Part shown: piece by piece, positions 16,840-41,591 of the stretch
Layout of the letters: the number at the start of each line of letters is the position of its first letter
Position numbering within the stretch: the stretch's first letter is position 1
Source: Chloroflexota bacterium
GTDB taxonomy: Bacteria > Chloroflexota > Dehalococcoidia > UBA2979
NCBI GenBank assembly: GCA_002707835.1
Contig: PANZ01000004.1
Location: 1 to 46,892, forward strand
DNA: 46,892 bases
Direction of reading: 5' to 3'
The notes under the pieces: generated by a model
What the model saw: only the letters and a program-made list of their open reading frames with translations
Told to the model about the DNA's origin: nothing
The model's database searches: none
Translations under genes and position numbers: made by a program

Positions 16840-17748
16840 TTATTTGAAGTTCTTTGCAACTTCTTCCATAAATTGATCATATGCTTCAATTTGTTGATCC
16901 AGTGAAGAACCTAAGTTGAAGTTGGGCAGTATGAACTCTGATACTCCTGCGTCGAGGTAGTCTTGCATAATTTGACATAACTGTTCAGAATTTCCTGCAA
17001 TCATTTGGCGTTCTGTATTTTCTAAGGCTTTTTCAATTATTTTCGGATCATCACTATGCACAACTAAGGCCTGCGCTGATCGTTGTATTTCATTTATATC
17101 GCGTCCTATTGTTGTTGCGTGTGCTTCTAAGATAGGGCCTTTTGCTGCTAGAACCGTAGGAGTTCCCCATACATTCCACTCATCTGCATATTGTGCAGCA
17201 ATGCGCATTGTCACTTTTTCTCCACCTCCTCCGATGAGTAATGGTGGTCCATTTTGTTGTAGGGGTTTTGGTGAAAGTGGAGCTTCTTGTAGAGTATAGA
17301 ATTCACCATCGAAATTAGTTCTTTCTTTCGAAAATAAGTTTTTTATTATTTGAACAGCTTCTTCGAGTCGGCGCATGCGCCCGCCTACAGTTGAATACTC
17401 GATCCCATAGGCACGGTGCTCGTTTTCTTGCCACCCTGCCCCTAGTCCAAAAACTAAACGTCCTTTGCTAATGATATCTACTTGTGCCGCCTGTTTCGCC
17501 AGTACTGCAGGATGTCGATATGTGTTGCCAGTAACCAAAGTTCCTAAACGTATCCTAGGTATTTTGACAGATAAAGCAGAAAGAATAGTCCATGCCTCGC
17601 CTGTGGGACCAGTATTATCGTCATCACGATTGGGCATGAAATGATCTGCAATCCACAAGCCATCCCATCCTGTTTTTTCTGCGTGTAGTGCTAGTTTTTC
17701 AATTTGATCGTAAGGTGCTGCAGAACCTGGCCAGATACTAAATTTCAT
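16840..17748 (-). CDS. luciferase-like monooxygenase family oxidoreductase (probable F420- or FMN-dependent)
   Basis: MKFSIWPG...GWDGLWIADHFMPN N-terminus and GLGAGWQENEH segment, typical of the LLM-class F420-dependent oxidoreductases. AGGAAG RBS. Confidence 0.85.
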   Translation of the reverse strand: MKFSIWPGSAAPYDQIEKLALHAEKTGWDGLWIADHFMPNRDDDNTGPTGEAWTILSALSVKIPRIRLGTLVTGNTYRHPAVLAKQAAQVDIISKGRLVFGLGAGWQENEHRAYGIEYSTVGGRMRRLEEAVQIIKNLFSKERTNFDGEFYTLQEAPLSPKPLQQNGPPLLIGGGGEKVTMRIAAQYADEWNVWGTPTVLAAKGPILEAHATTIGRDINEIQRSAQALVVHSDDPKIIEKALENTERQMIAGNSEQLCQIMQDYLDAGVSEFILPNFNLGSSLDQQIEAYDQFMEEVAKNFK

Positions 17749-17829
17749 TTATCTTCCTGTCATTTGCTATTAAATAAGTTTACTGAATTCAGTGCTATCA
17801 TACTTACTATATAGAGGATAAGTAACATT

Positions 17830-18153
17830 TTGGCGTGGATTTTACTGGTCATAGCAATATCTGTTGAAGTTGGAGCCACTTTTTCTTTACGTGCTTCAGA
17901 TGGATTTTCACGTCTTCCTTACACGATTACGACTTTAGTGGGTTATGCAATAGCTATTTCGTTAATGGCGATTATCGTTAAATCCTTACCAGTCGGTCTG
18001 GTTTATGCTATTTGGGCTTCTAGTGGCATTGCTCTTGTTGCAATAGGGAGTTACATCATATTTGGTGATGCACTTCCTCCCATGGCTATCCTTGGGATAG
18101 CGCTTATTATTACAGGAGTTGTGGTACTTAGGCTTTCATTATCTTCGGTATGA
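17830..18153 (+). CDS. small multidrug resistance (SMR, EmrE/QacE-like) transporter
   Basis: 107 aa with four TM segments and a membrane-embedded Glu in TM1 (AISVEVGATFSLRAS). TTG start. Confidence 0.85.
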   Translation: MAWILLVIAISVEVGATFSLRASDGFSRLPYTITTLVGYAIAISLMAIIVKSLPVGLVYAIWASSGIALVAIGSYIIFGDALPPMAILGIALIITGVVVLRLSLSSV

Positions 18154-18156
18154 AAT

Positions 18157-19146
18157 TTAAATTGCCTGAGCCGCATCTATATATGTAGGGACTTTTTCCT
18201 CTTCAAATATTTGATCAATTTGTGATCTAACTTCATCAGATAGACGCCAATCTGCAGCAGCAACATTTTCTTGTAATTCTTGTTTGTTTCTCATCCCAAC
18301 TAACGCAACAGAAACTGCAGAATTACCTAATACCCAAGCAATTGCAAGTTGCGGTAGTGATTTACCATGTTCTGCAGCTAATTTTTTTAGTCTTTCTGAT
18401 ACACGTATTTCTTTCTCAAAATCATCAGGTTGAAAAAGTGGAAGTCCAAATGCAACACCACGACTTCTCCAATCCCAATCTACAAAACGAGTCTCAGTGG
18501 TGAAAGCACCAGATAACAACCCGAAACCAAGACTTCCATAGGCCATAAAGCCAGTGTTGCTTTCCTTACAATATGGAAGTACTGCTGATTCCATCCTGCG
18601 ATCAAACATGTGGTATCCAACTTGATTTGCAGCAAGTGAGCCATTTTTTTCACATTCCTGCATCATTTCAACTGTGAAGTTTGAAACGCCGTAGTGACGA
18701 ATTTTTCCAGATTTTTTTAGTTCTTCCAATCCTTGCATTGTTTCATCAAATGGGGTGTCATGATCGGGCCAATGGATTAACAATAGGTCAATGACGTCAG
18801 TTTGCAATCTATTTAAGCATGCCTCTGCTCGTTCAATAATATGTTCTTTTTTAGAGTTTCTACCAATATTTTTTGGGGTGTCGTCATATTCAAATCCAAC
18901 TTTTGTAACTAAGGTAATATCTTTTCTTCTCGGTCCAAGTGCTTTTGCTAGCAATTCTTCAGAATGATAAGGTCCATATACTTCGGCCGTGTCAAACAAT
19001 GTAATCCCTGCATCGATTGCTTGATTAACAGCTAAAGCAGCTTCATTAACGTCAATTTCTCCGTATGCAGTAGTGCTCATTTCCCAGGTTCCAAAACCTA
19101 CTGCAGAAACAATTAAGTCGGTATTACCAATTTGTCGCTGTTCCAT
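18157..19146 (-). CDS. aldo/keto reductase
   Basis: GFGTWE, LFDTAEVYG, IDLLLIHWPD and HYGVSNF motifs. GGGAGGA RBS. Confidence 0.92.
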   Translation of the reverse strand: MEQRQIGNTDLIVSAVGFGTWEMSTTAYGEIDVNEAALAVNQAIDAGITLFDTAEVYGPYHSEELLAKALGPRRKDITLVTKVGFEYDDTPKNIGRNSKKEHIIERAEACLNRLQTDVIDLLLIHWPDHDTPFDETMQGLEELKKSGKIRHYGVSNFTVEMMQECEKNGSLAANQVGYHMFDRRMESAVLPYCKESNTGFMAYGSLGFGLLSGAFTTETRFVDWDWRSRGVAFGLPLFQPDDFEKEIRVSERLKKLAAEHGKSLPQLAIAWVLGNSAVSVALVGMRNKQELQENVAAADWRLSDEVRSQIDQIFEEEKVPTYIDAAQAI

Positions 19147-19193
19147 AAAATCCTCCCTAGCTAGGAGTGCATACTAACTAAAAATCCAAATTT

Positions 19194-20273
19194 TTAGTAG
19201 TTTGACTCAACCGTTACCTTAATCGATCCACTTTTTTTATTTCCTGCCAACTCTATACCTTTTGCCACGTCTTCCAAAGGTACACGGTGTGTAATCAATT
19301 TTGCCATTTTCTCTCTATGTGAACTGAGAAGCTGTGTAGCTATTTCATAGTCATGATGGAATCCTATATAGCCATAGAAAATTGTTCCTGCAATTCTGAG
19401 TTGTTTTGAGACAATTGATCTTGCTGGAAGGGGGTTATCTCCAGAGAAAACACCCAAAAGAAGAATTTTCCCTCCAATGCGCGAAATACGTGATGCTAAT
19501 GTTGGTGTTTGTGCCGTTCCACCAACTGTTTCCATAACTAAGTCCACAGGATTTTGTTTTGACCAGTGTTCCAATCGCTCAGGACCATCTTCATCTGACG
19601 GGAAGACGTGTGTTGCTCCTAGCATTTTTGCGGCTTCGATTTGTTGAGGATATCTTGCTGTAACTGCAATATCTCCTGCACCAGCTTGTCTGGCATAAAA
19701 GACTGACATTAATCCAATCGGCCCTGCTCCAAGTATTACTACTCTTTCGCCGTGAGTTGTAGTCATAGGATCAAGTTGTGTTGCCACACGATGACCGTGA
19801 ACAGCAACTGATAGAGGCTCGGCAAGAGCAGCAATTGCAAAATCTAAATCATCATCAACAGGAAATAGATTTACTTCTGGTACAACTAATGTCTCTCTAA
19901 AACCCCCAGGCAATTGCGTTCCATTGGTGAAAAATGTTGCACCGTGTAATCCTCCTGCATTTTGACATAATTCAGTTCGTCCACCTTGACATGATGAACA
20001 AATACCACAAAATAGACGAGGTTGAAACGCTACACGTTGACCTATTTTGACTCTGGTGACTTTGTCTCCAATTGATTCTACTTCCCCTGCTATTTCATGT
20101 CCCAATACTCGACCTGCAGTCCATTTTTCAGGTTCACGATATGCATGAAGATCTGAGCCACAAATTCCACTAGCTTTAATTTTAATCAATACTTCATTTG
20201 ATTGTGGTTCTCGTTCATCGAATTCTACGATATCGAATGAAGATGGATTTTTTGTTGTTACAGCTTGTTTCAT
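19194..20273 (-). CDS. zinc-dependent medium-chain alcohol/polyol dehydrogenase
   Basis: GICGSDLH and GHEIAGEV zinc motifs, a structural-Zn Cys cluster (CGICSSCQGG...C) and the GAGPIGL Rossmann loop. The ATG at 20273 follows GGAGA; the upstream 12 codons are rejected. Confidence 0.9.
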   Translation of the reverse strand: MKQAVTTKNPSSFDIVEFDEREPQSNEVLIKIKASGICGSDLHAYREPEKWTAGRVLGHEIAGEVESIGDKVTRVKIGQRVAFQPRLFCGICSSCQGGRTELCQNAGGLHGATFFTNGTQLPGGFRETLVVPEVNLFPVDDDLDFAIAALAEPLSVAVHGHRVATQLDPMTTTHGERVVILGAGPIGLMSVFYARQAGAGDIAVTARYPQQIEAAKMLGATHVFPSDEDGPERLEHWSKQNPVDLVMETVGGTAQTPTLASRISRIGGKILLLGVFSGDNPLPARSIVSKQLRIAGTIFYGYIGFHHDYEIATQLLSSHREKMAKLITHRVPLEDVAKGIELAGNKKSGSIKVTVESNY

Positions 20274-20373
20274 GCTAAATCTCCATATGTACGGGGGATT
20301 AATTTTCATAATACTGGTCAGATTACTGTATGAAGTCTATTCTCATTTCATCAGAATAACTAGGAGTGGGTTG

Positions 20374-21150
20374 ATGCAGAAAAATTTTGAAGAAAAAATT
20401 GTAATTGTTACCGGTGCTGCGGGAGGAATTGGTTTTGCTGCATGTCAAAAATTTTTAGCGCTAGGAGCTAGAGTAGTCAGGGTTGATATGGACCAACAAG
20501 CCCTTGAAAATACTGCAAAACAACTAGGTCAATATGATGGAAGAGCTATTGAAATTGTTGCAGATATGACTCTTACTAATGATGTGGAGAAGATCGTTTC
20601 AACAACAGTTAGTACATTCGGAAGAATAGATTGTTTTTTTAATAATGCAGGGATTGAAGGTGTAATACAACCAATAACACAATACCCGGAAGAGATATTT
20701 GATAAAGTCATTGCGGTCAATGTTAAGGGTGTTTGGCTTGGATTAAAATATGTAGGCGAGGTGATGTTAAAACAACATTCTGGAGTGATTGTGAATACAG
20801 CTTCTACTGCAGGACTTGGTGCTACTGTTGATATGGTTGCTTATGGCGCAAGTAAACATGCTGTAGTAGGGATGACTAAATCAGCAGCAGTTGAATGGGG
20901 TCCCGAGGGTATTCGCGTAAATGCTGTAGCACCTGGTCCTACCGAAACTCGAATGATGAGATCAATTGAAAGACAAAGAAACCCTGATGATCCTGATGAT
21001 GTACACGTGCAATACGCTGCCAGATCAGCATTAAAGCGTTACGGAGATCCTGAAGAAATAGCAGATTTAGTGGTTTATCTATGCAGTGATGAAGCTTCAT
21101 ATATAACAGGTACAATAATTCCCGTAGACGGAGGAAGACGTGCTAATTAA
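20374..21150 (+). CDS. short-chain dehydrogenase/reductase
   Basis: TGAAGGIG, NNAG and YGASK. The ATG at 20374 follows AGGAG at a 7-nt spacing. The track start at 20272 would overlap the divergent ADH gene. Confidence 0.92.
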   Translation: MQKNFEEKIVIVTGAAGGIGFAACQKFLALGARVVRVDMDQQALENTAKQLGQYDGRAIEIVADMTLTNDVEKIVSTTVSTFGRIDCFFNNAGIEGVIQPITQYPEEIFDKVIAVNVKGVWLGLKYVGEVMLKQHSGVIVNTASTAGLGATVDMVAYGASKHAVVGMTKSAAVEWGPEGIRVNAVAPGPTETRMMRSIERQRNPDDPDDVHVQYAARSALKRYGDPEEIADLVVYLCSDEASYITGTIIPVDGGRRAN

Positions 21151-21173
21151 GTCTATATCGAAAGGTAAAAGAG

Positions 21174-22265
21174 ATGACAGCTGAACATGATGATAATCGT
21201 CGAATACTTGAACGTTTATCAAATGCACTGGGCCCAACAGGATTTGAAGGACCGGTACGAGAAATTGTGAGAGAAGAACTTGAATTAGTAGTCGATTCAA
21301 TTGGAAATGATGGATTAGGATCAGTTATCTCAGAATTAAAAGGTGCTTCTTCTTCTCCACGCATCATGTTTGCTGCACATATGGATGAATTGGGGCTAAT
21401 GGTTCGAAGAATTACCCCAGAAGGGTACATAAAAATTCAACCTTTAGGTGGTTGGTTAGATCAAGCATTGATTAACCAACGTTGGATTATACTCACACGT
21501 GAAGGTGAGGTTCCTGGTGTGAGTGGTATTAAAACTCCACATGTAATGTCTCAAGATGCACGATCGAAAATATTTAAGCGTGATGACATATTTATCGATG
21601 TGGGTGCAAGTTCAAAAGAAGATGCTGAAGATCGCTTAAATATTCGTCCTGGTGATGCAATCGCACCAGCATCATATTTTCAAGAAATGGAAGGTAATTG
21701 CCTATATATGGGCAAAGCTTGGGATGATCGTGCCGGAGTTGCAGTAATGCTGCAAACTATAAAAAGATTAAAGCAATTAGGTCATCCCAATACTGTTTAT
21801 GGAGTTGCAACTGTACAAGAAGAAGTTGGACTAAGAGGTGCTCAGACAAGTGCATTTGCAGTATCTCCGGATATAGGTATCTCTCTTGAATCAGGTGTCG
21901 CTGGAGACTATCCAGGTATTACTGCTGATGAAGCTCAAGAATTAGTTGGAAGTGGCCCAGGTATTTTCCTTCATGACTCTTCGATGTTACCTAATAACCG
22001 CTTACGTGATTTAGTTGTGGATATCGCCCAAGATCTTAATATCCCTTTGCAGTTCAATGTTTTAAGTGGGTATGGGCAAGATGGTGCAGCTATACAGAAA
22101 ACAGGTGCTGGTGTCCCTGCGATTAATGTGACAGTACCGACACGATATTTACATAGTCATACCGGAGTAATCCATCGAGATGACGTTGAAGGTGCTATAC
22201 AACTTATGGTGGAGCTAGTCCGGCGTCTGGATGACATGACTGTTGAAAAAATAAAGCAATTTTAA
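21174..22265 (+). CDS. M42 family metallo-aminopeptidase (FrvX / glutamyl aminopeptidase-like)
   Basis: FAAHMDELGLMV, KAWDDRAG and VQEEVGLRGA motifs of the M42 family. Confidence 0.88.
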   Translation: MTAEHDDNRRILERLSNALGPTGFEGPVREIVREELELVVDSIGNDGLGSVISELKGASSSPRIMFAAHMDELGLMVRRITPEGYIKIQPLGGWLDQALINQRWIILTREGEVPGVSGIKTPHVMSQDARSKIFKRDDIFIDVGASSKEDAEDRLNIRPGDAIAPASYFQEMEGNCLYMGKAWDDRAGVAVMLQTIKRLKQLGHPNTVYGVATVQEEVGLRGAQTSAFAVSPDIGISLESGVAGDYPGITADEAQELVGSGPGIFLHDSSMLPNNRLRDLVVDIAQDLNIPLQFNVLSGYGQDGAAIQKTGAGVPAINVTVPTRYLHSHTGVIHRDDVEGAIQLMVELVRRLDDMTVEKIKQF

Positions 22266-22283: not shown

Positions 22284-25200
22284 TTACCAAGTATCAATAT
22301 AGGGTCTTTTCTTATTAGTCCGTTTTGGAACAGGTGGGAGACTACGTAACCCGTTGGCAATCCATCTCCGTGTATCTGCAGGATCAATAACATCATCGAT
22401 ACCAAAATAGATTGCTGTATTTACCGCTTTAGCATTTTCATATTTTTCAGCAACCATTCTTTCATAAGCATCTATTCTTTCATCAGGATTCTCTATGGCA
22501 GCAAGATCGTCGCGATATCCAAGTTTTACAGCCCCTTCAATATTCATTCCCGCAAATTCTGCGGTTGGCCATGCAACAGTGAAAAATGGCACTAAAGAGC
22601 TAGCTCCACACATCGCTTGCACTCCTAGTCCATATGATTTTCTTATTACGATACCAAACATGGGGACGGACAAATTAGCCCCAGTGTTAAACATTCGTGC
22701 ACAGTGTCTGACTAAAGCCGTTCTTTCAACTTCAGGACCTACCATCATGCCTGGACAATCCATCAAACTAATAACAGGAAGATCGAAAGCGTCACATAAT
22801 TGAAGGAATCTTGCTCCTTTATCTGCTCCGTCACTATCGATAGCACCTGCAAGATGATGAGGGTTGTTTGCGATTAACCCGAGAGGTTTTCCTTCTATGC
22901 GAATGAAACAAGTAATAATCCCTACACCAAAATTTTCTCTGATTTCAAGGACTGAATCTTTATCGGCTAATGTTTTTATTATTTCCCGCATGTTGTACAT
23001 GCGTAGACGATTTTCAGGCACTATGTGTCGCATTGATCTTTGATCTGATTCCTCCCAATTTTCAATAGATCCTTGAAAGTATGATAAATATTTTTTTGCA
23101 ACACTTGTGGCTTCAGTTTCATCTTTGACAAGAATATCGACAACTCCATTTGGAACTTGAAAAGACATAGGTCCAACTTCTTCCGGTGTATAAACACCTA
23201 AGTTGCCTCCTTCAATCATGGCTGGTCCGCCCATTGCAATAGTCGAGTTCTCTGTTGCGATAATTACATCACAGCAGGCAAGTAGTGCGGTGTTTCCAGC
23301 GAAACAGCGCCCTGAATTGACGCCTACTAAAGGCACTAAACCACTAAGTTTTGAAAATTGTGTGAATGTGTAGGTATCAACTGCAGCGCTACCTTCTCGT
23401 CCTGTATCACCAGGTCGTCCACCACCACCTTCAGAGTACAGAATCACAGGAAGCATGTATCGATGAGCAAGGTCGTACATACGGTCTTGTTTATAGTGGT
23501 TGCGATTACCTTGCGTTCCTGCAAAAACTGTGTAGTCATAATGCACTGCAATGGATCTCGCATTTTCTTTGCCAACTAAATCTTCATTGATTTGACCTGT
23601 CCCAGCCACTAAACCATCAGCAGGAGTTCGTTCACGTAGCCATTGTTCCGTCCTACGTGAACGCTGTGCTGCTACTACTAAAGGACCAAATTCAGTAAAT
23701 GTATCTGCATCGAATAGATCACTTAAATTTTCCCGTGCTGTACGTTGTCCTTTTGAGTGTCTACGTTCAACTGCGTCAGGTCGATTTTCATCAAAAATAT
23801 ATGATCGACGTTCATTAAGTTCCTCCAAATCGGAACGAATGAAATCGAGGTCGATATTATCATTAGAACCTTCATATTCATCTGTGCTGTCTATTTCCTC
23901 CACGTAAATTAGTGCAAAACCTTCTCGAATGACATCTCCTATTGATATATGTACTTCTCGTACAATACCTGAACAACTTGCTTCGATGACATGTTCCATT
24001 TTCATAGCTTCCATTACTGCTATGGGTTGTCCTTTTAAGACTCGATCTCCCTCTGCAACATTAATTTCTAAAATGGTTCCTTGAATTGGCGCAAATATTC
24101 CTTCAACACCTTCAGTATCAATTGACTGACTTGTGTTCTGTTGTACTTCATTTGTTTGCAGATTTTGTGAATGTTTTACAGCTGCATCGTGTGCAAAAAG
24201 CGCTAGGGGATCTTTGCTTTCAATTTGTGCTCCCGCAAATCCAGTATCATTCTCGACCTTTGCAGTTGTATTGATTGAATATCGTTGTTCGATCAATGCT
24301 GAATTTTCAACTAATTCCTTTATGTTTTCATCAATAAAGCGTGTGTAGAAATTACCAGTTATAAAATCTTGGTGTTTTAGGATTGTTTGTAAAAATTGAA
24401 TATTGGTGGTGATTCCTTCTATTCGAAATTCATTGAGTGCTCTAAGTGATTTTGCTGCTGCTTTTTCAAATTGTGAGGATTTCGAATGGATGATTAGCTT
24501 TGCTAGTAGAGAGTCAAAAGATGGACTTGTTTCATAACCTGTGTAACCAAAACCATCTACTCTAATTCCCGGTCCCCCTGGTATGTCGTAGGCAGTTAGT
24601 ACTCCACCTGATGGTCGAATATTTCCATTATTATCGAATGCTTCCATATTGACTCGAGTTTGAATAGAGTATCCCGTCGTAGTGATATTTTTTTGTTCAT
24701 CCAAGCCAAGATCCTTGAGGCTTACGCCCTGTGCAATATGAAGTTGCGATTGGACAATATCTACACCAGTGACTTCTTCAGTGACAGTATGTTCGACTTG
24801 AAGACGTGCATTAGCCTCTATAAAAACGAAGGGCTCTCCTCCTTCATCAGAATTAGTATTTACCAAAAATTCAAAAGTTCCTAAACTTTGGTAATTCACT
24901 TTTTTTGCAAACTGTACAGCGGCGGTACTAATTTTTTCTCTTAATGCTTCAGGAAGATATGGTGCCGGTGCGATTTCAATTAATTTTTGGTGGCGTCGTT
25001 GCACACTACATTCTCGTTCACCTAGATGTATTATTTTACCAGTATGGTCACCAATGATTTGTACTTCTATGTGTCGAGCCCTAGGTAAAAATTCTTCGAT
25101 ATATAAGTCTTCATTTCCAAAAGCAATTCTTGCCTCAACTTGACAGCTCTTAAATGCACTTTCAAGCTCAGCTAAATCAGTTACTGCACGACTCCCTCGC

Positions 25201-25697: not shown

Positions 25698-25720
25698 AGA
25701 AATTTCCTTATATTATTTTC

Positions 25721-28141
25721 TTAATTTTCCTGAGAAGTTTCATATAACGTCCCGGTAATTCTATCTTTGACTAATTCCTTATACCTTTGTATCCCGATAT
25801 CTAATTCTTGTAAAAAAACCTCTTGACTATGTTCTCCAACACAGGGTGATGGTCTAATACCTGGATTAGGTGAATGTGATAATTTCCAAGGTCGTAAAGG
25901 TAAATAAGTTGGACCTGTCTCAGGATGGTCGATTTCTTTGATAAACCCTCTGTCTAGAGAGGATTTACTTGGACTACTATAAACTTCATATAAAGGGACC
26001 ACACGCGCGGCAGCAATTCCAAGTTCACATAGATTATTCTCTAAGATTTTAGCATCTTGTTGAATAGTCCAATTCTCGATTAACAAATCTAAGCTCTTTT
26101 CATTTTTTTTACGATTTCGCATGCTGTTAAATTCAAGGTTTTTCAAATGAGGTATATCGGTGAATTGTACAAATTTTTCCCAAACATTGTCCGATTCAAT
26201 TGCTATTGCGATCCATTCATTATTCGTTGTTGGGTAAATATTATGAGGAGATATTCGAGGGTGGTGGTTGCCTTGGGGTTTTGCAATCGATCCTAACCCA
26301 TCATATTCAGCTACGGCATCTCCACATACTGTAATCATTGCTTCCAACATCGATAGTTCAATTCTTTGAGGTTTATTAATTATATCGCGCTGATATAAAG
26401 CTCCTATCACTGAACCTGCAAAATAGTAGGCAGCTACTGAATCTGGGTAGAGCCCTCCTGTATTCATACCGGCCTCATTTTCATATCCATGAATAGATGA
26501 CAAACCGGACATGGGCTCAATAGTGGTACCTATACCAGGGAAATCTTTATAAGGGCCATATGCTCCATATGATGAAATTGAAGCATAAATAATTTTGGGG
26601 CAAACTTCCTCAAGTTTTTCTAATGTAATACCCCAGCGTTCCATTACATTTGGTCTAAAATTATCTGCGAGAATGTCGAATTTTGGTAACATCTGCCAGA
26701 ACATCGACAGACCTTCTTCTTGTGATAAGTCAAGAGTAATTGCTCGTTTGTTCAGGTTTACAGAATTATAAAGACCTTGAGTATTTAGAGTGTGTTGTTT
26801 TTTGGCAGGATCTTTTATACCAGCCGGAATTGTGTCACGAGTACGCCGCCATACATCTTGTCGGTCGACTGTTTCAATTTGGATAACATCTGCACCAAGT
26901 AGTCCTAGTAGTTCAGTTCCAAAAGTACCCGACCATGCCTGTCCAAAGCTAAGTACACGAACTCCATGCAAGGGACCTTCTGAATGTGATGCGTTTTTTA
27001 CTGTTTGAGTTTTTTTTGAATTATTCGGGGATACACGTTTGAATGTCGAAGTATGTTGCCCGTGTTGAGGTGCTGATTTCTTCAGCTCCCAACTTACAGG
27101 AGTTGATTTTGTCCAGGCTCCTGGCATACGAATAGATTTGTCTAGTATAGAAGTTGTTCTTAAGAAATCACGTTGTTCTAGGTGCGGATTCTCAATGATA
27201 TCTTTCATATCTTGTACAACTCCTGAAACACATCTAAGTTCTGACAGGGCATGAAATAAGGGCCAACGTTCTAAATTGAAGAGCTCACGCGCTGCACCGG
27301 CTCGAACTGGGTCCAAATCTTTTGCATGTCGTCCTATATCTGGCACTAAATCAGGATGATCTGCGAATTCAGGAAGATTAAGTATATCCATTGCCTTTTG
27401 CCAATGATGCCAATCACCAAATGCTAAGGCTATCTGTCCGTCTGATGTTGAAAATAATGGATGAGGCTCTCCTCTTTGTCGTCCACCAGCGGGTCCATAA
27501 GTTGATCCAATACCTTGATATACCGCTGCTACTCCCCAAGGATGGACGGTAAGTGAGAATGCATCAAATTCACTGACATCTGCTAATTCATATGTTGGTG
27601 ATTGATCCTTTCGAAGTAATGCAGCGCTCGCTACCATGAAGCCGGCTATTCCAGCTATGTATCCGCTTTGTCTATTAGGCATCTGCAAAGGTGACTCATC
27701 TAGGTAGCCGTTGATATAGGCCCATCCAGTTCGTGCACTGTGAGTAAGATTATTACCAGAGACAGATGATAATTCTCCTTCGAGTCCGTGCGGTGTAATC
27801 GAAAGATGGATGGCGTTACTTTTTAATGATGCAATTAAATTTTGTAATTCTAAACTGATGGGGCTTGCCGTAGTAATAAGTATATCTGTTTGTGAAACGA
27901 GTTCGTTAATTTCATCAAGTCGCTCGTAAATTAAGGATGATTTGTTCCAATTAACATAGTTATGTAGAAGGCTATTTTCTTTTCCAGCTTCATTGTTTAT
28001 GAATGGAGGTTCATGTCTTAATGAATGTCCGAAATTTGATTCAGCTAAAATTACATCTGCACCGAGATCCCCAAACATTCTTGCAGCATAAGCTCCTGAG
28101 AGTCGGTCAGATAAATCTACGACACGTATATTTGTGTAAAT
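25721..28141 (-). CDS. tandem-fused double family III (CaiB/BaiF) CoA-transferase; start codon uncertain (first canonical ATG at 28078)
   Basis: Two complete family III modules joined by a low-complexity linker (…HGQHTSTFKRVSPNNSKKTQTVKNASHSEGPL…). The second module starts GVRVLSFGQAWSGTFGTELLGLLGADVIQIE. The matching start of the first module (NIRVVDLSDRLSGAYAARMFGDLGADVILAE) extends in frame upstream of the ATG at 28078. ATT at 28141 with AGGA 8 nt upstream is my best guess for the start. Confidence 0.8.
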   Translation of the reverse strand: MYTNIRVVDLSDRLSGAYAARMFGDLGADVILAESNFGHSLRHEPPFINNEAGKENSLLHNYVNWNKSSLIYERLDEINELVSQTDILITTASPISLELQNLIASLKSNAIHLSITPHGLEGELSSVSGNNLTHSARTGWAYINGYLDESPLQMPNRQSGYIAGIAGFMVASAALLRKDQSPTYELADVSEFDAFSLTVHPWGVAAVYQGIGSTYGPAGGRQRGEPHPLFSTSDGQIALAFGDWHHWQKAMDILNLPEFADHPDLVPDIGRHAKDLDPVRAGAARELFNLERWPLFHALSELRCVSGVVQDMKDIIENPHLEQRDFLRTTSILDKSIRMPGAWTKSTPVSWELKKSAPQHGQHTSTFKRVSPNNSKKTQTVKNASHSEGPLHGVRVLSFGQAWSGTFGTELLGLLGADVIQIETVDRQDVWRRTRDTIPAGIKDPAKKQHTLNTQGLYNSVNLNKRAITLDLSQEEGLSMFWQMLPKFDILADNFRPNVMERWGITLEKLEEVCPKIIYASISSYGAYGPYKDFPGIGTTIEPMSGLSSIHGYENEAGMNTGGLYPDSVAAYYFAGSVIGALYQRDIINKPQRIELSMLEAMITVCGDAVAEYDGLGSIAKPQGNHHPRISPHNIYPTTNNEWIAIAIESDNVWEKFVQFTDIPHLKNLEFNSMRNRKKNEKSLDLLIENWTIQQDAKILENNLCELGIAAARVVPLYEVYSSPSKSSLDRGFIKEIDHPETGPTYLPLRPWKLSHSPNPGIRPSPCVGEHSQEVFLQELDIGIQRYKELVKDRITGTLYETSQEN

Positions 28142-28247
28142 AGTTATAATCCTGTCAAAAGTTAATATATTATGTCTTTTTATAGCAAAACTGAGAGAAA
28201 TGTATAAGGGTTTGCTTGTTTTGCAGAAGATTTGGTGGTGACATAAA

Positions 28248-29222
28248 GTGCGAATCCATAACGTACAAGTTAATCGTGTTGTTGATTTTCCTATGATTAC
28301 TCCAAGTAGCGATTCTAGTATTGGTACTAATATACAAGGCCCTTCAGTAATAAAGGTTCCTGAATGGATTAAGAATCCTTTAGGTGCCTATTATCTTTAC
28401 TTTGCAGATCATAAAGGGAGTTATATTAGGCTGGCTTATGCAGATAATCCTTTGGGACCGTGGGCAATTTATTCTCCCGGCAGCCTTCAGCTCTCTGAAT
28501 CTTGTTTCCTTACAGAGGCACCAGAAATTTCTCCAGAAATGCTCAAGGAATATGAACTGCGCAGACAAGGTGCAGCGATATCTCATGATTTGTTAACGGA
28601 AATAAGTACCCCGCATATTGCATCACCAGATGTGATTGTGGATTCTTCAAATAAACTAATCCTAATGTATTTTCATGGGTTAGAATCTGCTGGTAATCAA
28701 GTATCACGCTTAGCATTTTCGGATGATGGGATTTCATTTCGTGCGAGATCAGCGATCCTTGGACGTACTTATATGCGAATTTTTAAGTATGAAGGTGAAA
28801 CTTACGCTCTTTCTATGCCCGGACAGGTGTATAAATCAGCTAACGGTCAGGATGATTTTAAAGAAGGCCCTTTGTTATTTAATCCTAATATGCGTCATTC
28901 TGCTGTTTTAGTACGTGATAACGTTCTTTTGGTTTTTTGGACTCAAGTAGGTGATATTCCTGAAAGTATACTGTTAAGTCGTATAGACCTAACGAACCAT
29001 TGGATGGACTGGCAAGCAGAAGATGCTATTGAATTACTTCATCCTGAATTTGATTGGGAAGGAGCTAATGCTCCTTTAGTTCCATCGGTGCGAAGTACAG
29101 CTTACGGGCATGTCAATCAATTGAGAGATCCAGCTATCTTGGTAAATAATGATGAAGTCTTTTTATACTATGCAATCGCAGGTGAAAGTGGAATCGCTGT
29201 AGTTAAGATAGAAATTGACTAA
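28248..29222 (+). CDS. hypothetical protein, possibly a five-bladed beta-propeller glycoside-hydrolase-like fold (GH43/GH32 clan)
   Basis: Repeated beta-strand-rich pattern with acidic motifs (HIASPDVIV, QLRDPAILV, IAGESGIAVV) reminiscent of clan GH-F/GH-J. GTG start 7 nt after GGTGGTG. The fold assignment is tentative. Confidence 0.35.
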   Translation: MRIHNVQVNRVVDFPMITPSSDSSIGTNIQGPSVIKVPEWIKNPLGAYYLYFADHKGSYIRLAYADNPLGPWAIYSPGSLQLSESCFLTEAPEISPEMLKEYELRRQGAAISHDLLTEISTPHIASPDVIVDSSNKLILMYFHGLESAGNQVSRLAFSDDGISFRARSAILGRTYMRIFKYEGETYALSMPGQVYKSANGQDDFKEGPLLFNPNMRHSAVLVRDNVLLVFWTQVGDIPESILLSRIDLTNHWMDWQAEDAIELLHPEFDWEGANAPLVPSVRSTAYGHVNQLRDPAILVNNDEVFLYYAIAGESGIAVVKIEID

Positions 29223-29226
29223 TGCC

Positions 29227-29850
29227 TTATAAAGGCTCTCCCCAAACTCCAAGAGATGTGACTTCAGCAAGCGGTTTCCTTTGTACAGGTCCAAAATTTC
29301 CTTTTGGATATCCTATTGGCACACAATAAACAATCTGTACATTTTCTGGCATGTTGAACATAGATTTTACTTGATCTTCTACAGATGGATGAAGTGTTGT
29401 AATTGTACCTCCTATACCCAATGAACGTGCAGTTAGTAGTAAGTTCTGCACTGCAGGAATTACTGATCCCATAGGACCAGAACCTTGTGCGGTTGCACAA
29501 ATAAGAATAATGGCAGGTGCTGTTGCGATCTCATCAGAAAGTTTCATGGCAGACAGAGTGGTTTTATTGTTTTCTGCGATATCTTCAGGTTTATATATCC
29601 CTTGGTCTGCACGTTTTGCCCACCATGCCTGATGATATAACTCTGCGAATTCTTGTTTCTGCTTTTTATCTTTGATAACTAGAAAATGCCAAGGTTGTGA
29701 GTTTCCACCTGAGGGTGCTTGGGTGGCAGAAAGTAAAATGTCCTTAATGATTTCATTGTCAATAGGTTCATTTTTGAAACGTCGAATTGCTCTTAAAGTG
29801 AAAATGGCTTCTCCCAAGCTAATTGGAAATCGTTCGTTAGGGTTCATCAT
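29227..29850 (-). CDS. nitroreductase family (FMN-dependent) oxidoreductase
   Basis: LRAIRRFKNEPI...ATQAPSGGNSQPWHFLVI signature. AAGGAA RBS. Confidence 0.9.
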   Translation of the reverse strand: MMNPNERFPISLGEAIFTLRAIRRFKNEPIDNEIIKDILLSATQAPSGGNSQPWHFLVIKDKKQKQEFAELYHQAWWAKRADQGIYKPEDIAENNKTTLSAMKLSDEIATAPAIILICATAQGSGPMGSVIPAVQNLLLTARSLGIGGTITTLHPSVEDQVKSMFNMPENVQIVYCVPIGYPKGNFGPVQRKPLAEVTSLGVWGEPL

Positions 29851-29856
29851 GTTTCC

Positions 29857-30771
29857 TTAATTATCTTCCATGATTGGTGGGTTTGAATAACTTTCAGATG
29901 GGTTCTTTTTGGAAAGAATAGGGTTTTGCATTTCTATAATGTGTTCCGTCCTGTTCTTAATTCTATTGAGAGGTACATCTTCAGTGAGAATCCAAAATTG
30001 TTCATCTTGGATAGCTTGCATTACCTGCTTTGCAACTATTTCAGGAGGGAGACCATGGCTAAAATGTTTATCTCCTTGTCTAATTTGTTCATCTATCATT
30101 TTTAGTGTTGGTTTTTCACTATTTTCCCACATGCTATCTGGCCTATTTCGACCAGATGAGAAAATGCGCGTATTAATAATACCTGGGCATAGTACAGATG
30201 CTTTGATAGGAGAATCAATTTCCTCTAATTGAAAGAAAAGTGCTTCTGAGATCCGAACTACAGCATGTTTTGTTGCTCCATAAATTCCTGAAGTAGATCC
30301 TCCAAGTAGGCCAGCCATTGAAGCTGTATTGACTATATGTCCAGGTTCATTTTGTTTTAACATTGAAGGAAGGAATTCTTTTATTCCATTAAGTACTCCT
30401 GAGACATTGACACCAAATGTCCAATCCCAGAGAGAAGATGATTGTTCCCAAAGTGGTTTGTTCCGTTGCCCGACAAAGTCCAGATCTCCAGCCACACCTG
30501 CATTGTTGCAAAGTATATGGACCTTACCGAAATGGTCGATGGTTTTTTTGTATAAATTTGCAACATCTTTTTGATTGCTGACATCTGTAATTATTCCAAT
30601 TACATCAATATCATGTGATTGAAGTTCATTCACAGCATTATCAAGCGAATTTTCCTCTATGTCAGCTATGACTACTTTCATTCCTTCTGTACCAAATTGA
30701 TATGCAAATGCTTTACCAATTCCTGATGCACCGCCAGTTATGACTGCTACTTGATCTTTAAAAATGTGCAT
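29857..30771 (-). CDS. short-chain dehydrogenase/reductase (extended C-terminus)
   Basis: TGGASGIG, NNAG and YGATK motifs. GAAGGTGA RBS. Confidence 0.9.
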   Translation of the reverse strand: MHIFKDQVAVITGGASGIGKAFAYQFGTEGMKVVIADIEENSLDNAVNELQSHDIDVIGIITDVSNQKDVANLYKKTIDHFGKVHILCNNAGVAGDLDFVGQRNKPLWEQSSSLWDWTFGVNVSGVLNGIKEFLPSMLKQNEPGHIVNTASMAGLLGGSTSGIYGATKHAVVRISEALFFQLEEIDSPIKASVLCPGIINTRIFSSGRNRPDSMWENSEKPTLKMIDEQIRQGDKHFSHGLPPEIVAKQVMQAIQDEQFWILTEDVPLNRIKNRTEHIIEMQNPILSKKNPSESYSNPPIMEDN

Positions 30772-33609: not shown

Positions 33610-33724
33610 TATGCCTCTATCTCTAATATTTATCTAATATACCATGATTTGCATCAAGATATTTTCTTCAGTTTTTGATATGATGCCGCTAAATAGCACT
33701 GCTTTTTAGCTGAGAGAGAATTTG

Positions 33725-35434
33725 ATGACTACTACTACGAAGAGCAATTTTACGGATAGTGCCAATAATCTGTATGCATCTCTTGAAGAAAAAGTTATGG
33801 ATCGTGATCAAGTTGGTGCTAGTAATGTTTTCTATGAATTATTGAGGCAAGGACGTCCATTAAATGAGATGATTCGTGAAACTGTTCGTATCCACGCTCC
33901 GTATACTCATACACCCTTCCATCAACGTATTGATAATGGCGTTGTCAGATTTGTTAATAATGATCATTGTTTACTTAGCGCTCGTGCAAGTTGGCGTATG
34001 CCAGATTTCTTACCAGAGCGATTAAAATTTCTACCGATGGCACAGACGATTTGGTATGTACCAACTGGTCTTGATGTATGGAATCAATTACTCGGACGTG
34101 CACCTGGCCATTATGGCCGACGAGTCTATGATGAAGCGAAATTTCCTGAACCTCCTCTTCCTGAAGCGCACTGGGAGGACAGTGATGCTATGGATATAGA
34201 GGGATCACTTGATGAACGCCTTAATTATTGGTTGACATTGGTTCAATACAGCAAAGCTGAAGAGTCTTACGCTGTTTTCCGTGGTTTATTAAAAAATGAA
34301 AAAGATCGTCCACAAGTATTCGCTCATCTTATGTTTGCTGGACTTATCGATGTCCAAGATCGCATTTTGTATAACCGTAGTTACACCACAGGGCATAAGT
34401 CGTATCGAGCACGTGCCACAATTGAATTATCTAGTGCAGTTGGCTGGGAAAAAGCACACGACGTAATATATGCTGGAGTTCCTGATATTGCTGTTGGTCC
34501 ACACTGGTACTCTGCTTATGAAATGGCATGTGAGGTTGAGAAAAATTTTCTTGAACTGAATCCTCCAACTTCATCGTTGGCTCCTACACTTGTTACTACT
34601 ACTGATAGTAATCTTTTTGCGCAAGAAACAGATTTGTCACATGCGGAACAAGCAATGTTAATGCGTTCATTGTTAGAAGAAGTAGAACCTTCATACATTG
34701 AAGCTATTATCGGATTGTTGAAATCTGGAAAGTCCCCACAAAAAATACTCGATGCAATTCAAATTGCTGCTGCAGAAATTGTGCTTCGATGTGGGACACC
34801 ACAAAGCTTTTCAATGCCTCAGCATGGTTATGAATATACGAATACTCTTTCTTGGTTTTATGCTAATTTCCAGCATCCTCACAAAACAAAATTACTTTTT
34901 GTGGCGGGGTCTTTTATCAATCAGTGTGCGATGTTAATAAAGAACACTCCTGGTAATGGTCGTCCAACTTTTACTCCTCCTCAAGCAGCAGATGCTCTGT
35001 CCAAAGAAAAACTGTTGTCACAACTTGATGCTGCAATCACAGCACTACAACCTGATGAAGCAGCGTCCTGGACACAAGCTTACTTAGATGCCGGACACGA
35101 AAGAAGATCTTTGGTTGCGACCCTTACTTTTGCAGCTGCTAAGCAGGGCAATGATCCACATAATCAAGAAATTGGATTATGCATGATTGAAGATTATGCC
35201 CGTACCAGTTCTCCTTTACGAGATCGATTGTTATTGGCTTGTGCAAAACATACTGCTGGTCATATTAAATATGGCAATCCTATGGAATCGTACAGTCGTT
35301 TTGCTAGTGAATTTGATCTGCCTTCGACTACAGATGTAAACGGTCAGGCTGAGCCTTTCGAAGCGCTACTAGACGAATTGGAGGAAGTTCCATTGGAAGA
35401 TATTGAATCTACACCTCCAAGGATACAGTTATAA
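33725..35434 (+). CDS. hypothetical protein (569-570 aa, soluble, His-rich motifs, no recognised family)
   Basis: Long intact ORF with a GAGAGAGA RBS. It stops 4 nt before the malate synthase G start. No TM segments or known motifs recognised. Confidence 0.6.
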   Translation: MTTTTKSNFTDSANNLYASLEEKVMDRDQVGASNVFYELLRQGRPLNEMIRETVRIHAPYTHTPFHQRIDNGVVRFVNNDHCLLSARASWRMPDFLPERLKFLPMAQTIWYVPTGLDVWNQLLGRAPGHYGRRVYDEAKFPEPPLPEAHWEDSDAMDIEGSLDERLNYWLTLVQYSKAEESYAVFRGLLKNEKDRPQVFAHLMFAGLIDVQDRILYNRSYTTGHKSYRARATIELSSAVGWEKAHDVIYAGVPDIAVGPHWYSAYEMACEVEKNFLELNPPTSSLAPTLVTTTDSNLFAQETDLSHAEQAMLMRSLLEEVEPSYIEAIIGLLKSGKSPQKILDAIQIAAAEIVLRCGTPQSFSMPQHGYEYTNTLSWFYANFQHPHKTKLLFVAGSFINQCAMLIKNTPGNGRPTFTPPQAADALSKEKLLSQLDAAITALQPDEAASWTQAYLDAGHERRSLVATLTFAAAKQGNDPHNQEIGLCMIEDYARTSSPLRDRLLLACAKHTAGHIKYGNPMESYSRFASEFDLPSTTDVNGQAEPFEALLDELEEVPLEDIESTPPRIQL

Positions 35435-35438
35435 AAAT

Positions 35439-39073: not shown

Positions 39074-40339
39074 TTATTTGAATGATAGCGGATCGTTTGC
39101 TGTTACTCCAAGTGCGGCTAACTCTGTTATCTCTTCTTCAGACATACCTGCTACTTCACGTAATACTTCTTCAGTATGTTCACCTAAAAGTGGTGCAGGT
39201 AATTGTGTTGCTCCTGGTGTTTTCGAAAATTGAAATGGTCGACTTAAGTAGGGGCGTGAATCAGATGGTCCACGTCCGCTATATTCCCAAAACCCACTAC
39301 TTACTAATTGTGGATCATGTACTAATTGCTCTCCGGAGTTCACCACTCCTGCAGGAACGTTTGCAAGTTGCAGGATTTCCATAGCAATAAACGCATCCTT
39401 TTGACTTGTCCATTGAGCTATATGTTGATCAATTTCATCATGATGCTCACGTCTTCCTTCTGTATTAGTAAAACGTGGGTCATTTTCTAATACTGAATTG
39501 TCCATACATTGAGTAAGTGCTTTCCAATCGTCGTTATTTTCCACGCTTATGGATATCCACTTGTCATCTCCAAGACATGGATAGATACCTTGTGGAGCAA
39601 ATGTTCGATGACGGTTCCCTATAGGCACTTGAATATTATTGTTCATCGTATAGTCCATGACCATGTCACCAAGAATGGATGATGTCATTTCACGTTGTGA
39701 AAAATCGATATAAACACCCTTACCAGTTTCTCGATGTTGGCGAATTGCACTAAGAACTATTCCTACCGATGCTACCGCTACAAGAGGATCAGGGAACAAT
39801 ACTCCAGAAGTACTTGGATCACCCCCCAGATATCCTGTAATTGAAGCTACTCCAGCTGTTTGCTCCAACGTTACTCCAAAGGATCCATATGCTACTTCTG
39901 GGCCAGTTGCACCTTGACTACCTAAAGTCACCATAATTATGTCCGGCTTAATTTGCCGGAGATCTTCATAACTTAAACCAAATCGTGCCATTACACCTTG
40001 TCTATAATTTTCGATGACAACATCTGAATTCATTGCTAAGCGTTTAAATGCGTCGACACCTCGTTCGTGGGTGAGATCGAGACATATATTCCGCTTGCTA
40101 CGATTTCGATCTAAATATCTTCCTGTTCGGTCCCAAGGCTTATCAGTGGGTTCATTATCGAGATACATTCCTTGGTCTATCTGTGGGTTATGTGCATCAC
40201 CACGTGCAATATCCATACGCCTAGCAGATTCTACTTTAATGATGTCAGCACCTAAGTCACCTAAAATTTTCGTACATGTAGGGCCTGCCCAGACTTGGGA
40301 TGGGTCAAGTATGCGTATGCCTTCAAGTGGTAAGTTCAT
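39074..40339 (-). CDS. family III (CaiB/BaiF) CoA-transferase
   Basis: GIRILDPSQVWAGPTCTKILGDLGADIIKVE N-terminus. Candidate catalytic Asp in LFPDPLVAVASVGIVLSAI. AAGGAA RBS. Confidence 0.9.
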   Translation of the reverse strand: MNLPLEGIRILDPSQVWAGPTCTKILGDLGADIIKVESARRMDIARGDAHNPQIDQGMYLDNEPTDKPWDRTGRYLDRNRSKRNICLDLTHERGVDAFKRLAMNSDVVIENYRQGVMARFGLSYEDLRQIKPDIIMVTLGSQGATGPEVAYGSFGVTLEQTAGVASITGYLGGDPSTSGVLFPDPLVAVASVGIVLSAIRQHRETGKGVYIDFSQREMTSSILGDMVMDYTMNNNIQVPIGNRHRTFAPQGIYPCLGDDKWISISVENNDDWKALTQCMDNSVLENDPRFTNTEGRREHHDEIDQHIAQWTSQKDAFIAMEILQLANVPAGVVNSGEQLVHDPQLVSSGFWEYSGRGPSDSRPYLSRPFQFSKTPGATQLPAPLLGEHTEEVLREVAGMSEEEITELAALGVTANDPLSFK

Positions 40340-40364
40340 TTGTTCCTTCTTTAAATTAAAACTA

Positions 40365-41591
40365 TTAGACTATGCCGCTATTTTTCATTTGATTAATTTT
40401 CTCGTTGTCCCATCCCAAAAGGGAACCATACACTTCCTCATTATGCTGTCCCAGTGTAGGTGCTGGTTTAAGATCCCATTGATCACCTCCCCATTTCATT
40501 GGTAATCCTGGGTAGGTTAATTTTCCTGCAATGGGATGTTCGAGTTCTACAAAGTATTCTCTATGTTGATATTGAGGGGATTCAATCAAGTCTTTCGCAT
40601 CACATATATAACCCCATGTCATACCTCTTTCTTGTGAAGCATGGTAGAGGTCCTGTTTTTTCTTATCACTTGCCCATTCTGCTATAAGTGCTGTGATTTC
40701 ATCTTGGTTTTTTTCACGTGCATCCATATCTTTGAATTTTTCATCATGTTCAAGTTCTGGTCTTCCAATCATTTCACATACTCCTGGCCAGTCTGTTTGG
40801 CGGAGCGTGATTCCAACTTGCCCATCGGCAGTTTTATAGAGTGGGGAGGATGCTAGTCGGCGACCACGTTCTTTTCCAGTTAGGATGTAAGAGAGTCCTG
40901 AATACATTTGTGCCACACCTATACCAGCTTGCGCTGATACATCAACATGTTGTCCAACACCGCTGATTTCCTTATAGGTTGAGGCTACTAATGCTCCTGA
41001 GAAGCCTGATAATCCACAAAAATATTCTGCTGGTTCGCCACCTATTTGTAGTGGTTCCCTCGAAGGATCTCCAGTTACAAAGGCCAATCCTCCTAAAGAT
41101 TGTGCAGTTATATCATTCCCTCGGTAACCTTTATAAGGTCCAGTTTGACCAAAAGGCGAAAGTGAGACAAGGATTTTAGCAGGGTTAATTTGCTCAATTG
41201 CGGAATATCCAATGCCCCATTCATCCATTTTTCCTGGAAGAAAATTTTCGACAATAATATCCGCCCATTCAATCAATTGAGTGGCTATATCAATTCCTGT
41301 TTCATTATCGAGGGATAGTGTGATTCCTTTTTTGTTCATATTGAGATATAAGAATTGGCCACTTTTTTCTGGATGTGGAATATTGTCGATGAATGGTCCT
41401 CGTGAACGTGAAATATCTCCAGATTGAGGTGATTCAATTTTTATGACTTCTGCTCCCATTACAGCAAGCATTTTTGTTGCGATTCCTCCAGAGATGCCCT
41501 GTGAGAAGTCGAGTACTTTAATGCCATCTAAAGGTGAAGCTACGTTTGACAAGGTTTTTCCTTCCGTAAAATCATTAATTTTGGGCATCAT
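40365..41591 (-). CDS. family III (CaiB/BaiF) CoA-transferase paralogue (Glu at the position expected for the catalytic Asp)
   Basis: GIKVLDFSQGISGGIATKMLAVMGAEVIKIE N-terminus. The active-site segment reads GGEPAEYFCGLSGFSGALVAS. Confidence 0.88.
   Translation of the reverse strand: MMPKINDFTEGKTLSNVASPLDGIKVLDFSQGISGGIATKMLAVMGAEVIKIESPQSGDISRSRGPFIDNIPHPEKSGQFLYLNMNKKGITLSLDNETGIDIATQLIEWADIIVENFLPGKMDEWGIGYSAIEQINPAKILVSLSPFGQTGPYKGYRGNDITAQSLGGLAFVTGDPSREPLQIGGEPAEYFCGLSGFSGALVASTYKEISGVGQHVDVSAQAGIGVAQMYSGLSYILTGKERGRRLASSPLYKTADGQVGITLRQTDWPGVCEMIGRPELEHDEKFKDMDAREKNQDEITALIAEWASDKKKQDLYHASQERGMTWGYICDAKDLIESPQYQHREYFVELEHPIAGKLTYPGLPMKWGGDQWDLKPAPTLGQHNEEVYGSLLGWDNEKINQMKNSGIV

Follow-up and report, generated by a model that had tools for sequence, protein, structure and literature searches.

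Homodimeric family III coenzyme A (CoA)-transferases are built from two identical chains of about 400 amino acids (aa), which form two equivalent active sites. A minus-strand gene in a 46,892-nucleotide (nt) stretch of a Chloroflexota genome (Dehalococcoidia, UBA2979; assembly GCA_002707835.1, contig PANZ01000004.1, positions 1 to 46,892; the whole stretch is called the window here) encodes two family III modules in a single chain. This raises the question of whether such a protein has one active site or two, how it came about and which reaction it serves. An original prediction, made from the sequence of the window without database searches, had described two complete modules, of which only the second carries the catalytic Asp. 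We followed up this prediction by comparing the fused protein and its gene neighborhood with profiles, solved structures and related genomes (coordinates in Table 1; locus numbers beginning with L are ours).

Both halves of the protein belong to family III. The Pfam profile CoA_transf_3 (PF02515) matches two stretches (whole-protein E 6e-125), the better of which, residues 391-772, covers positions 1-366 of the 366 positions of the profile, and each half matches solved family III chains when it is compared separately. Profile-profile comparison of the N- and C-terminal halves, using 117 orthologs, matched them to each other with 99.4% probability at 22% identity. The modules are joined by a segment (about residues 361-392) rich in Ser, Thr, Lys, His, Asn and Gln, which in the orthologs shows 15% identity and varies in length from 26 to 69 residues. 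This poorly conserved linker is about 25-30 residues long and is disordered according to the structural model described below. The two modules in one continuous open reading frame (ORF) and the linker, predicted to be rich in Ser, Lys, Thr and Gln, were thus both recovered.

The modules differ at the position of the nucleophile. The C-terminal half aligns over its full length with chain B of BbsEF, the succinyl-CoA:(R)-benzylsuccinate CoA-transferase (9fn0_B, E 5e-49), as well as with YfdE, a Brucella formyl-CoA transferase and SUGCT, and D567 falls on the Asp of these enzymes. It lies within YPDSVAAYYFAGSVIGAL, in GLYPDSVAA, and corresponds to D178 of 9fn0_B as counted in the printed alignment; the entry title of 9FOL refers to a 'D178-CoA adduct'. 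Position 567 is Asp in 117 of 117 full-length orthologs. Counted from the first ATG it is residue 546, the very residue that had been proposed as the nucleophile of the second module, and the alignments with SUGCT, YfdE and BbsEF chain B bear this out. For the N-terminal half, the best match among solved structures is chain A of BbsEF (9fn0_A, E 6e-23), followed by SUGCT (1.5e-13), with 9fn0_B far weaker (3e-8). The catalytic Asp of SUGCT aligns here with Gly160 of the motif RQSGY, and 9fn0_A has a Tyr at this position. An alternative profile register places the position three residues further on, at A163, and in neither register is an Asp or Glu present between N156 and R177. Of the 117 orthologs, 111 have Gly at position 160 and three have Ser, while His, Asp and Glu occur there once each. 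The Gly without an acidic residue nearby that had been noticed in the first module is therefore confirmed, and profile alignment finds no Asp at its catalytic position in either register. The family III catalytic Asp is present in the C-module and missing from the N-module, which, judged by its sequence, has the family III fold but is no catalytic member.

The N-module is nevertheless well conserved. Pairwise identity between orthologs averages 62% in the N-module and 67% in the C-module, and the invariant residues of the N-module include H39, R42, W65, K67, W140, R223 and R271. Two canonical motifs are degenerate in it, NFRPG being replaced by TTxxP and GNxHP by GPAGGRxRG. Since the N-module is under strong purifying selection, it appears to be a conserved and specialised, non-nucleophilic working partner and not a decaying copy, which fits the earlier suggestion that it had been repurposed.

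To which known enzyme does this asymmetric layout correspond? The N-half is closest to chain A of BbsEF and the C-half is closest to chain B, and two distinct module types (22% identity) are combined of which one has the Asp and the other a Gly. Asymmetric pairs also exist in unfused form. At loci L083 and L084, a family III gene that carries the Asp is overlapped or directly adjoined by a stand-alone N-like gene whose nucleophile position is occupied by Ser or Leu; as far as the gene order tells, the two partners are translationally coupled. A further pair lies within the window (39074-41591, minus strand), where two family III genes are separated by a gap of 25 nt; their order is that of the modules in the fused gene, and the product of the upstream gene (40365-41591) shares 28% identity with the fused N-half. 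Because the halves match different BbsEF subunits and asymmetric unfused pairs exist, the most economical reading would be that the fused gene arose by fusion of an already heteromeric pair, for whose reliance on one nucleophile the BbsEF structures 9FN0 and 9FOL provide a solved precedent. Tandem duplication followed by loss of the Asp is less likely, since each half is nearer to its own BbsEF subunit and stand-alone relatives than to the other half. On this point the original prediction, whose framing suggested a tandem copy of a homodimer subunit with a lost Asp, is not supported.

A model of the whole 806-residue chain was calculated with AlphaFold2 using the 117-sequence alignment. It has a mean predicted local distance difference test score (pLDDT) of 93.1 and a predicted template modelling score (pTM) of 0.94, and low confidence is confined to the linker (pLDDT below 50 at residues 376-382). 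When the model was compared with solved structures by Foldseek, the BbsEF chains B and D ranked first (9fn0_B/D; template modelling (TM) score 0.93-0.94, normalised to the target); SUGCT, formyl-CoA transferases and YfdE came next, and chain A of BbsEF reached a TM score of 0.84-0.85. Superposed chains of either BbsEF subunit type cover roughly half of the model, the module matched by each chain not being reported. A pTM of 0.94 for two modules of about 400 residues each implies that, in the model, they are held in a defined mutual arrangement, from which an interlocked geometry is inferred.

We then asked how common the fused architecture is. A word-indexed protein search yielded 2205 clusters at E <1e-10, and the best 120 of them are almost all proteins of about 800 aa that match at 49-59% identity over nearly their full length. 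In a scan covering one genome per species, relatives were found in 333 genomes. The best 80 of these are all metagenome-assembled genomes (MAGs) and belong to Dehalococcoidia and other Chloroflexota, Pseudomonadales (including Azotimanducaceae), other Gammaproteobacteria, Phenylobacterium, Acidimicrobiales, Planctomycetia and Nitrospirales; the closest match, at 97%, is in a Dehalococcoidia MAG from Station ALOHA (L006), which assigns the window to a marine organism of SAR202 type. When the N-half alone served as query, an exhaustive phmmer search returned 5949 matches. Among the best 150 representatives after clustering at 50%, 90 are fused (700 aa or longer, with 24-42% identity) and 23 are stand-alone proteins of about 400 aa; the sample is biased because it was picked by similarity to the Asp-less module. 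With the nucleophile column mapped by a hidden Markov model built from C-modules, about 88 of the 90 fused representatives have Asp in the C-module. The corresponding residue of their N-modules is Glu in 16, Ala in at least 12, Ser in at least 9, Asp in 8, His in 6 and Gly in at least 5, with others in the remainder. These counts show what looks like a large, diverse and unnamed class sharing one layout, with a variable residue in the N-module and Asp in the C-module. No NCBIfam family matches the protein at its cut-off, the best being succinate-glutarate CoA-transferase with 218 bits against a cut-off of 750, and the fused relatives are named in their sources only 'CoA transferase' or 'CaiB/BaiF family'. 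Judging from annotations, no fused form is known to have been characterised experimentally; Rv1866 of M. tuberculosis is a two-domain CaiB/BaiF protein of about 780 aa. The rarity implied by the original prediction does not hold: this family by itself has relatives in 333 species genomes, and 90 of the 150 best representatives are fused.

Some genomes encode more than one fused protein. At four loci (L002, L004, L005 and L050) a second, deeply divergent fused CoA-transferase gene for about 800 aa lies within 8 kb of the first, and one Pseudomonadales chromosome (OY762456.1) has two complete transferase-carboxylase cassettes (L016 and L031). One fused transferase (L024) stems from a 4.7-kb contig (CAMDVY010000296.1) in a MAG labelled Klebsiella pneumoniae and clusters tightly in the tree with that of an uncultured gammaproteobacterium (L036); the label is probably a binning or labelling error.

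The gene directly downstream of the fused gene encodes a carboxylase. Its single chain comprises the Pfam domains Biotin_carb_N, ATP-grasp, Biotin_carb_C, Biotin_lipoyl and Carboxyl_trans, and it matches the long-chain acyl-CoA carboxylase (LCC) 4rcn_A with 1036 bits. Biotin carboxylase (BC), biotin carboxyl carrier protein (BCCP), carboxyltransferase (CT) and the biotinylation motif are present in one chain of about 1100 aa, as in LCC-type enzymes. A promoter and terminator scan found no terminator-like site between the two genes; it also found fewer promoter-like sites than in shuffled sequences, so that the scan is uninformative for this organism. To see whether the pairing is conserved, we compared 80 loci centered on the transferase, 7 of which have too little flank, leaving 73 informative ones. 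The carboxylase gene lies directly downstream on the same strand in 39 of the 73 (median gap 60 nt, 58-99% identity) and nearby in 5; in 29 loci it is missing despite at least 3.5 kb of downstream flank. In a neighbour-joining tree, adjacency is found on Chloroflexota, alphaproteobacterial, planctomycete and many gammaproteobacterial branches, and a derived Pseudomonadales/Azotimanducaceae group is without the adjacent carboxylase. The carboxylase is predicted to be the operon partner of the fused transferase and to be co-transcribed with it, as had been proposed; the gap of 23 nt, a Shine-Dalgarno motif of its own and the conserved adjacency all agree with this. Clustering of 1027 ORFs from the 80 loci revealed no conserved neighbor besides the carboxylase, the next commonest being short-chain dehydrogenases/reductases (SDRs; 14 loci) and GMC oxidoreductases (13), then amidohydrolases, TonB receptors and major facilitator superfamily transporters.

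The pairing was also inspected from the side of the carboxylase. Among about 31 full-length LCC relatives from metagenomes (47-64% identity, loci L085-L119), one has a fused transferase gene directly upstream (L119) and two adjoin a single-module family III gene (L096 and L109). Others adjoin AMP-dependent acyl-CoA ligases, enoyl-CoA hydratases, SDRs or acyl-CoA dehydrogenases. LCC-type carboxylases would thus tend to adjoin an acid-activating enzyme, the fused transferase being one such option. One locus of this sample (L087) has two LCC-type genes in tandem.

In the mechanism of family III, attack of the Asp on the donor thioester yields a mixed anhydride, which is followed by an aspartyl-CoA thioester that passes its CoA to the incoming acid. 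We consider it probable, with considerable room for doubt, that the protein is a single-chain, pseudo-heterodimeric family III CoA-transferase, a fused form of the BbsEF type with one catalytic module, and that its product is fed to the co-transcribed LCC-type carboxylase. The C-module would be the enzyme: Asp567 would attack a donor acyl-CoA, the reaction would run through an acyl-aspartyl anhydride and an aspartyl-CoA thioester, and a free carboxylic acid, probably a di- or branched one, would receive the CoA. The N-module would be the obligatory interlocking partner that completes the fold, and it would probably contribute to the single substrate pocket. Being without a nucleophile and part of this one pocket, it would leave one active site per chain. 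The resulting acyl-CoA would then be the substrate of the LCC-type biotin carboxylase, using ATP and bicarbonate. Nothing observed points to chemistry outside the known family III mechanism.

Several observations weigh against this proposal. The 29 loci without a carboxylase despite adequate flank, together with the many LCC relatives that have no fused transferase, show that the pairing is frequent and not obligatory. No further neighbor is conserved, hence nothing in the surroundings points to the substrate. In addition, the N-module keeps several conserved residues of the Rossmann region (R42, NWNK and invariant Gly residues) and may bind CoA or a nucleotide beyond acting as a scaffold.

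An alternative use of the same two genes is CoA recycling, in which the product of the carboxylase, an alkylmalonyl- or dicarboxylyl-CoA, would serve as the CoA donor for the next free acid. The net reaction would be an ATP-dependent conversion of free acid to free dicarboxylate with catalytic CoA, and the N-module might bind the second CoA ester or serve to dock onto the carboxylase. This would explain why the gene pair is tight and conserved while no CoA ligase or thioesterase gene is conserved nearby. It would also suit the C-module, whose nearest named families all work with dicarboxylyl-CoA as donor or acceptor (succinate-glutarate, oxalate, mesaconate and benzylsuccinate), and the N-module, which has conserved residues where canonical members bind CoA. 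However, the scheme is deduced at every step, many orthologs have no adjacent carboxylase, most LCC relatives have no transferase, and the loss of NFRPG in the N-module argues against a normal CoA site there; we regard recycling as unlikely. Taken one step further, transferase and LCC would form one machine that turns free acid into free dicarboxylate with catalytic CoA, the C-module shuttling CoA and the N-module offering a second CoA-ester or docking site that channels the intermediates. We think this quite unlikely; if true, abundant marine heterotrophs (SAR202-type Dehalococcoidia and Pseudomonadales) would possess a carboxylation route that has not been described before.

The protein might also be bifunctional, with an N-module that uses another nucleophile or performs racemase- or isomerase-like chemistry, as MCR and Mct do. 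The strong conservation of this module and its own invariant residues would be compatible with this, the PDB matches show that family III includes racemases and intramolecular transferases, and other fused subfamilies have Asp (8 of 90) or Glu (16 of 90) at the N-module position. Yet in the orthologs of the present gene the position is almost always Gly, no conserved acidic residue is found at the N-terminus of the helix in either register, the NFRPG and GNxHP motifs are degenerate, and 9fn0_A, to which the N-half is closest among solved structures, is likewise without the Asp. Two catalytic modules are very unlikely.

The start of the gene needed separate attention. A TAA at 25721-25723 closes the uninterrupted minus-strand frame, and a mechanical list of ORFs starts it at the ATG at 28078 (25721..28078, minus strand, 785 aa), upstream of which the frame remains open. 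This upstream part encodes IRVVDLSDRLSGAYAAR, the first strand of the Rossmann-like domain, which aligns with the N-terminus of every homolog; the homologs start 6-7 residues ahead of IRVVDLS. No in-frame ATG, GTG, TTG or CTG is present from the upstream stop codon (28388-28390) to 28078. In a relative with 96% identity (L081), an indel of 1 nt brings a TGA into frame five codons ahead of the same ATT, so that translation there can begin only at this ATT if the conserved strand is made. Because of the conserved strand upstream of the ATG, the lack of a canonical start, the AGGA motif and the TGA of the relative, the ATT at 28139-28141 is accepted as the probable start codon, giving 806 aa. It coincides with the gene boundary of the original prediction, whereas starting at the first ATG would drop the conserved strand. 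Automated gene callers begin the gene at ATG 28078 here and at a TTG in the 96% relative, and they truncate the conserved first strand.

That the gene is an artefact, either two adjacent genes that appear as one because a sequencing error erased a stop codon or a truncated pseudogene without a canonical start, is scarcely credible and was rejected: unfused adjacent pairs of the same kind do exist, one of them within the window, and no ATG, GTG or TTG start precedes the conserved N-terminus, but the ORF is uninterrupted, at least 117 full-length fused orthologs (796-856 aa) come from independent projects and assemblies including complete, closed long-read MAG chromosomes, all of them have the linker in variable form, the ATT and its Shine-Dalgarno motif are kept in the 96% relative with a stop codon just upstream, and the AlphaFold model is confident over the whole chain. 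A missed stop codon or frameshift, which the original prediction had named as an explanation that would overturn it, is rejected on the same grounds.

Table 1. Positions of the fused CoA-transferase gene, its parts, its predicted operon partner and the unfused pair in the window
Feature	Position	Strand	Basis
Fused family III CoA-transferase gene, 806 aa + stop	25721..28141	-	Continuous ORF, two PF02515 stretches
Probable non-canonical ATT start codon	28139..28141	-	No canonical in-frame start upstream of ATG 28078; conserved in L081
AGGA Shine-Dalgarno-like motif, 8 nt upstream of ATT	28150..28153	-	Read from sequence; conserved in L081
N-terminal module, residues 2-365, BbsE-like, without nucleophile	27047..28138	-	Best PDB match 9fn0_A; pLDDT mostly >90
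Codon GGA, Gly160, aligned to catalytic Asp	27662..27664	-	SUGCT alignment (phmmer); codon verified
Inter-module linker, residues 366-388	26978..27046	-	pLDDT <50 at 376-382; low identity, variable length
C-terminal module, residues 389-806, BbsF-like, predicted catalytic	25724..26977	-	Best PDB match 9fn0_B
Codon GAT, Asp567, predicted nucleophile	26441..26443	-	Aligns with D178 of 9fn0_B; codon verified
Intergenic spacer, 23 nt, with AAGGA before carboxylase ATG	25698..25720	-	Read from sequence
Single-chain LCC-type acyl-CoA carboxylase (BC-BCCP-CT), 1137 aa	22284..25697	-	Pfam domains; 4rcn_A match
Biotinyl-lysine K566 codon of carboxylase, EAMKME motif	24000..24002	-	Codon check
Unfused upstream family III gene, 408 aa, Glu at nucleophile position	40365..41591	-	Best PDB match SUGCT
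Unfused downstream family III gene, 421 aa, Asp at nucleophile position, BbsF-like	39074..40339	-	9fn0_B, E 1e-65

The wider surroundings of the fused gene in the window are of mixed content. A divergent ORF of 324 aa beside it (28248-29222, plus strand) has no Pfam or NCBIfam match, and this arrangement is kept in L081. The flanks at 16840-22265 and 29227-30771 encode a luciferase-like monooxygenase, an aldo-keto reductase, a zinc-dependent alcohol dehydrogenase, two SDRs and a nitroreductase as well as an M42 peptidase and a small multidrug resistance transporter, an enzyme mix, rich in oxidoreductase paralogs, that is typical of SAR202-type genomes. At 33722-37622 (plus strand), an ORF of 570 aa without a Pfam match runs 32 nt into the beginning of a malate synthase G-like gene (35403-37622). 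The unfused CoA-transferase pair is about 1.5 kb away from these two genes; this proximity hints at glyoxylate or malyl-CoA-type chemistry.

Taken together, the fused gene is best read as a widespread, unnamed fused form, common in uncultured bacteria, of a heteromeric BbsEF-type transferase and not as a unique invention. What had been predicted about one chain with two modules, a single nucleophile and a carboxylase as operon partner stands, whereas the rarity and the framing as a duplicated homodimer do not. In a family that is usually described as homodimers with two equivalent sites, a large single-chain class spans several phyla, and one of its modules is systematically without the nucleophile, mirroring the heteromeric BbsEF. 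It offers a natural system for studying what the dead half of an interlocked dimer does, be it pocket formation, half-of-sites control or docking. The pairing of transferase and LCC-type carboxylase provides a concrete two-gene module that bears on the physiological role of LCC enzymes, and it could shed light on the use that SAR202-type bacteria make of carboxylic acids in dissolved organic matter.

Of the known systems, BbsEF (PDB 9FN0, 9FOL and 9FUN) is the closest: like the fused protein it consists of two different subunit types and has one nucleophile only, the Tyr of chain A corresponding to the N-half and D178 of chain B to D567. BbsE and BbsF are made as two polypeptides instead of one chain with a linker, and their identity to the fused halves is about 21-28%; as the gene is a single uninterrupted ORF, it is a fused variant and not a BbsEF-type member in the strict sense. 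In anaerobic toluene degraders, BbsEF is encoded in the bbs beta-oxidation operon, whereas the fused gene is found next to an LCC-type carboxylase in aerobic marine bacteria. No bbs-type neighbors are present around it, the context being the LCC carboxylase and variable oxidoreductases, and because of this different genomic context the substrate is almost certainly a different one. The homodimeric enzymes of family III (FRC/YfdW, YfdE, CaiB and human SUGCT) share the Pfam family, the fold and, with the C-module, the Asp motif; they differ in having two identical chains where the fused protein has two diverged modules (22% identity) and one nucleophile. The succinyl-CoA:L-malate CoA-transferase SmtAB of Chloroflexus, likewise a member of the Chloroflexota, is a heteromeric enzyme of family III whose two genes are adjacent and unfused, and in this it resembles the pair at 39074-41591 and those at L083 and L084. 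The family I CoA-transferases occur as two-subunit enzymes (AtoDA and GctAB) and as the fused mammalian SCOT with a hydrophilic linker, and a single subunit bears the nucleophile. The evolutionary logic is the same, by analogy only, since family I has an unrelated fold, uses Glu as its nucleophile and belongs to another mechanism class. For the partner gene the likeness is to LCC (PDB 4RCN), with which the carboxylase shares the single chain, the order BC-BCCP-CT and an intact AMKM biotin site.

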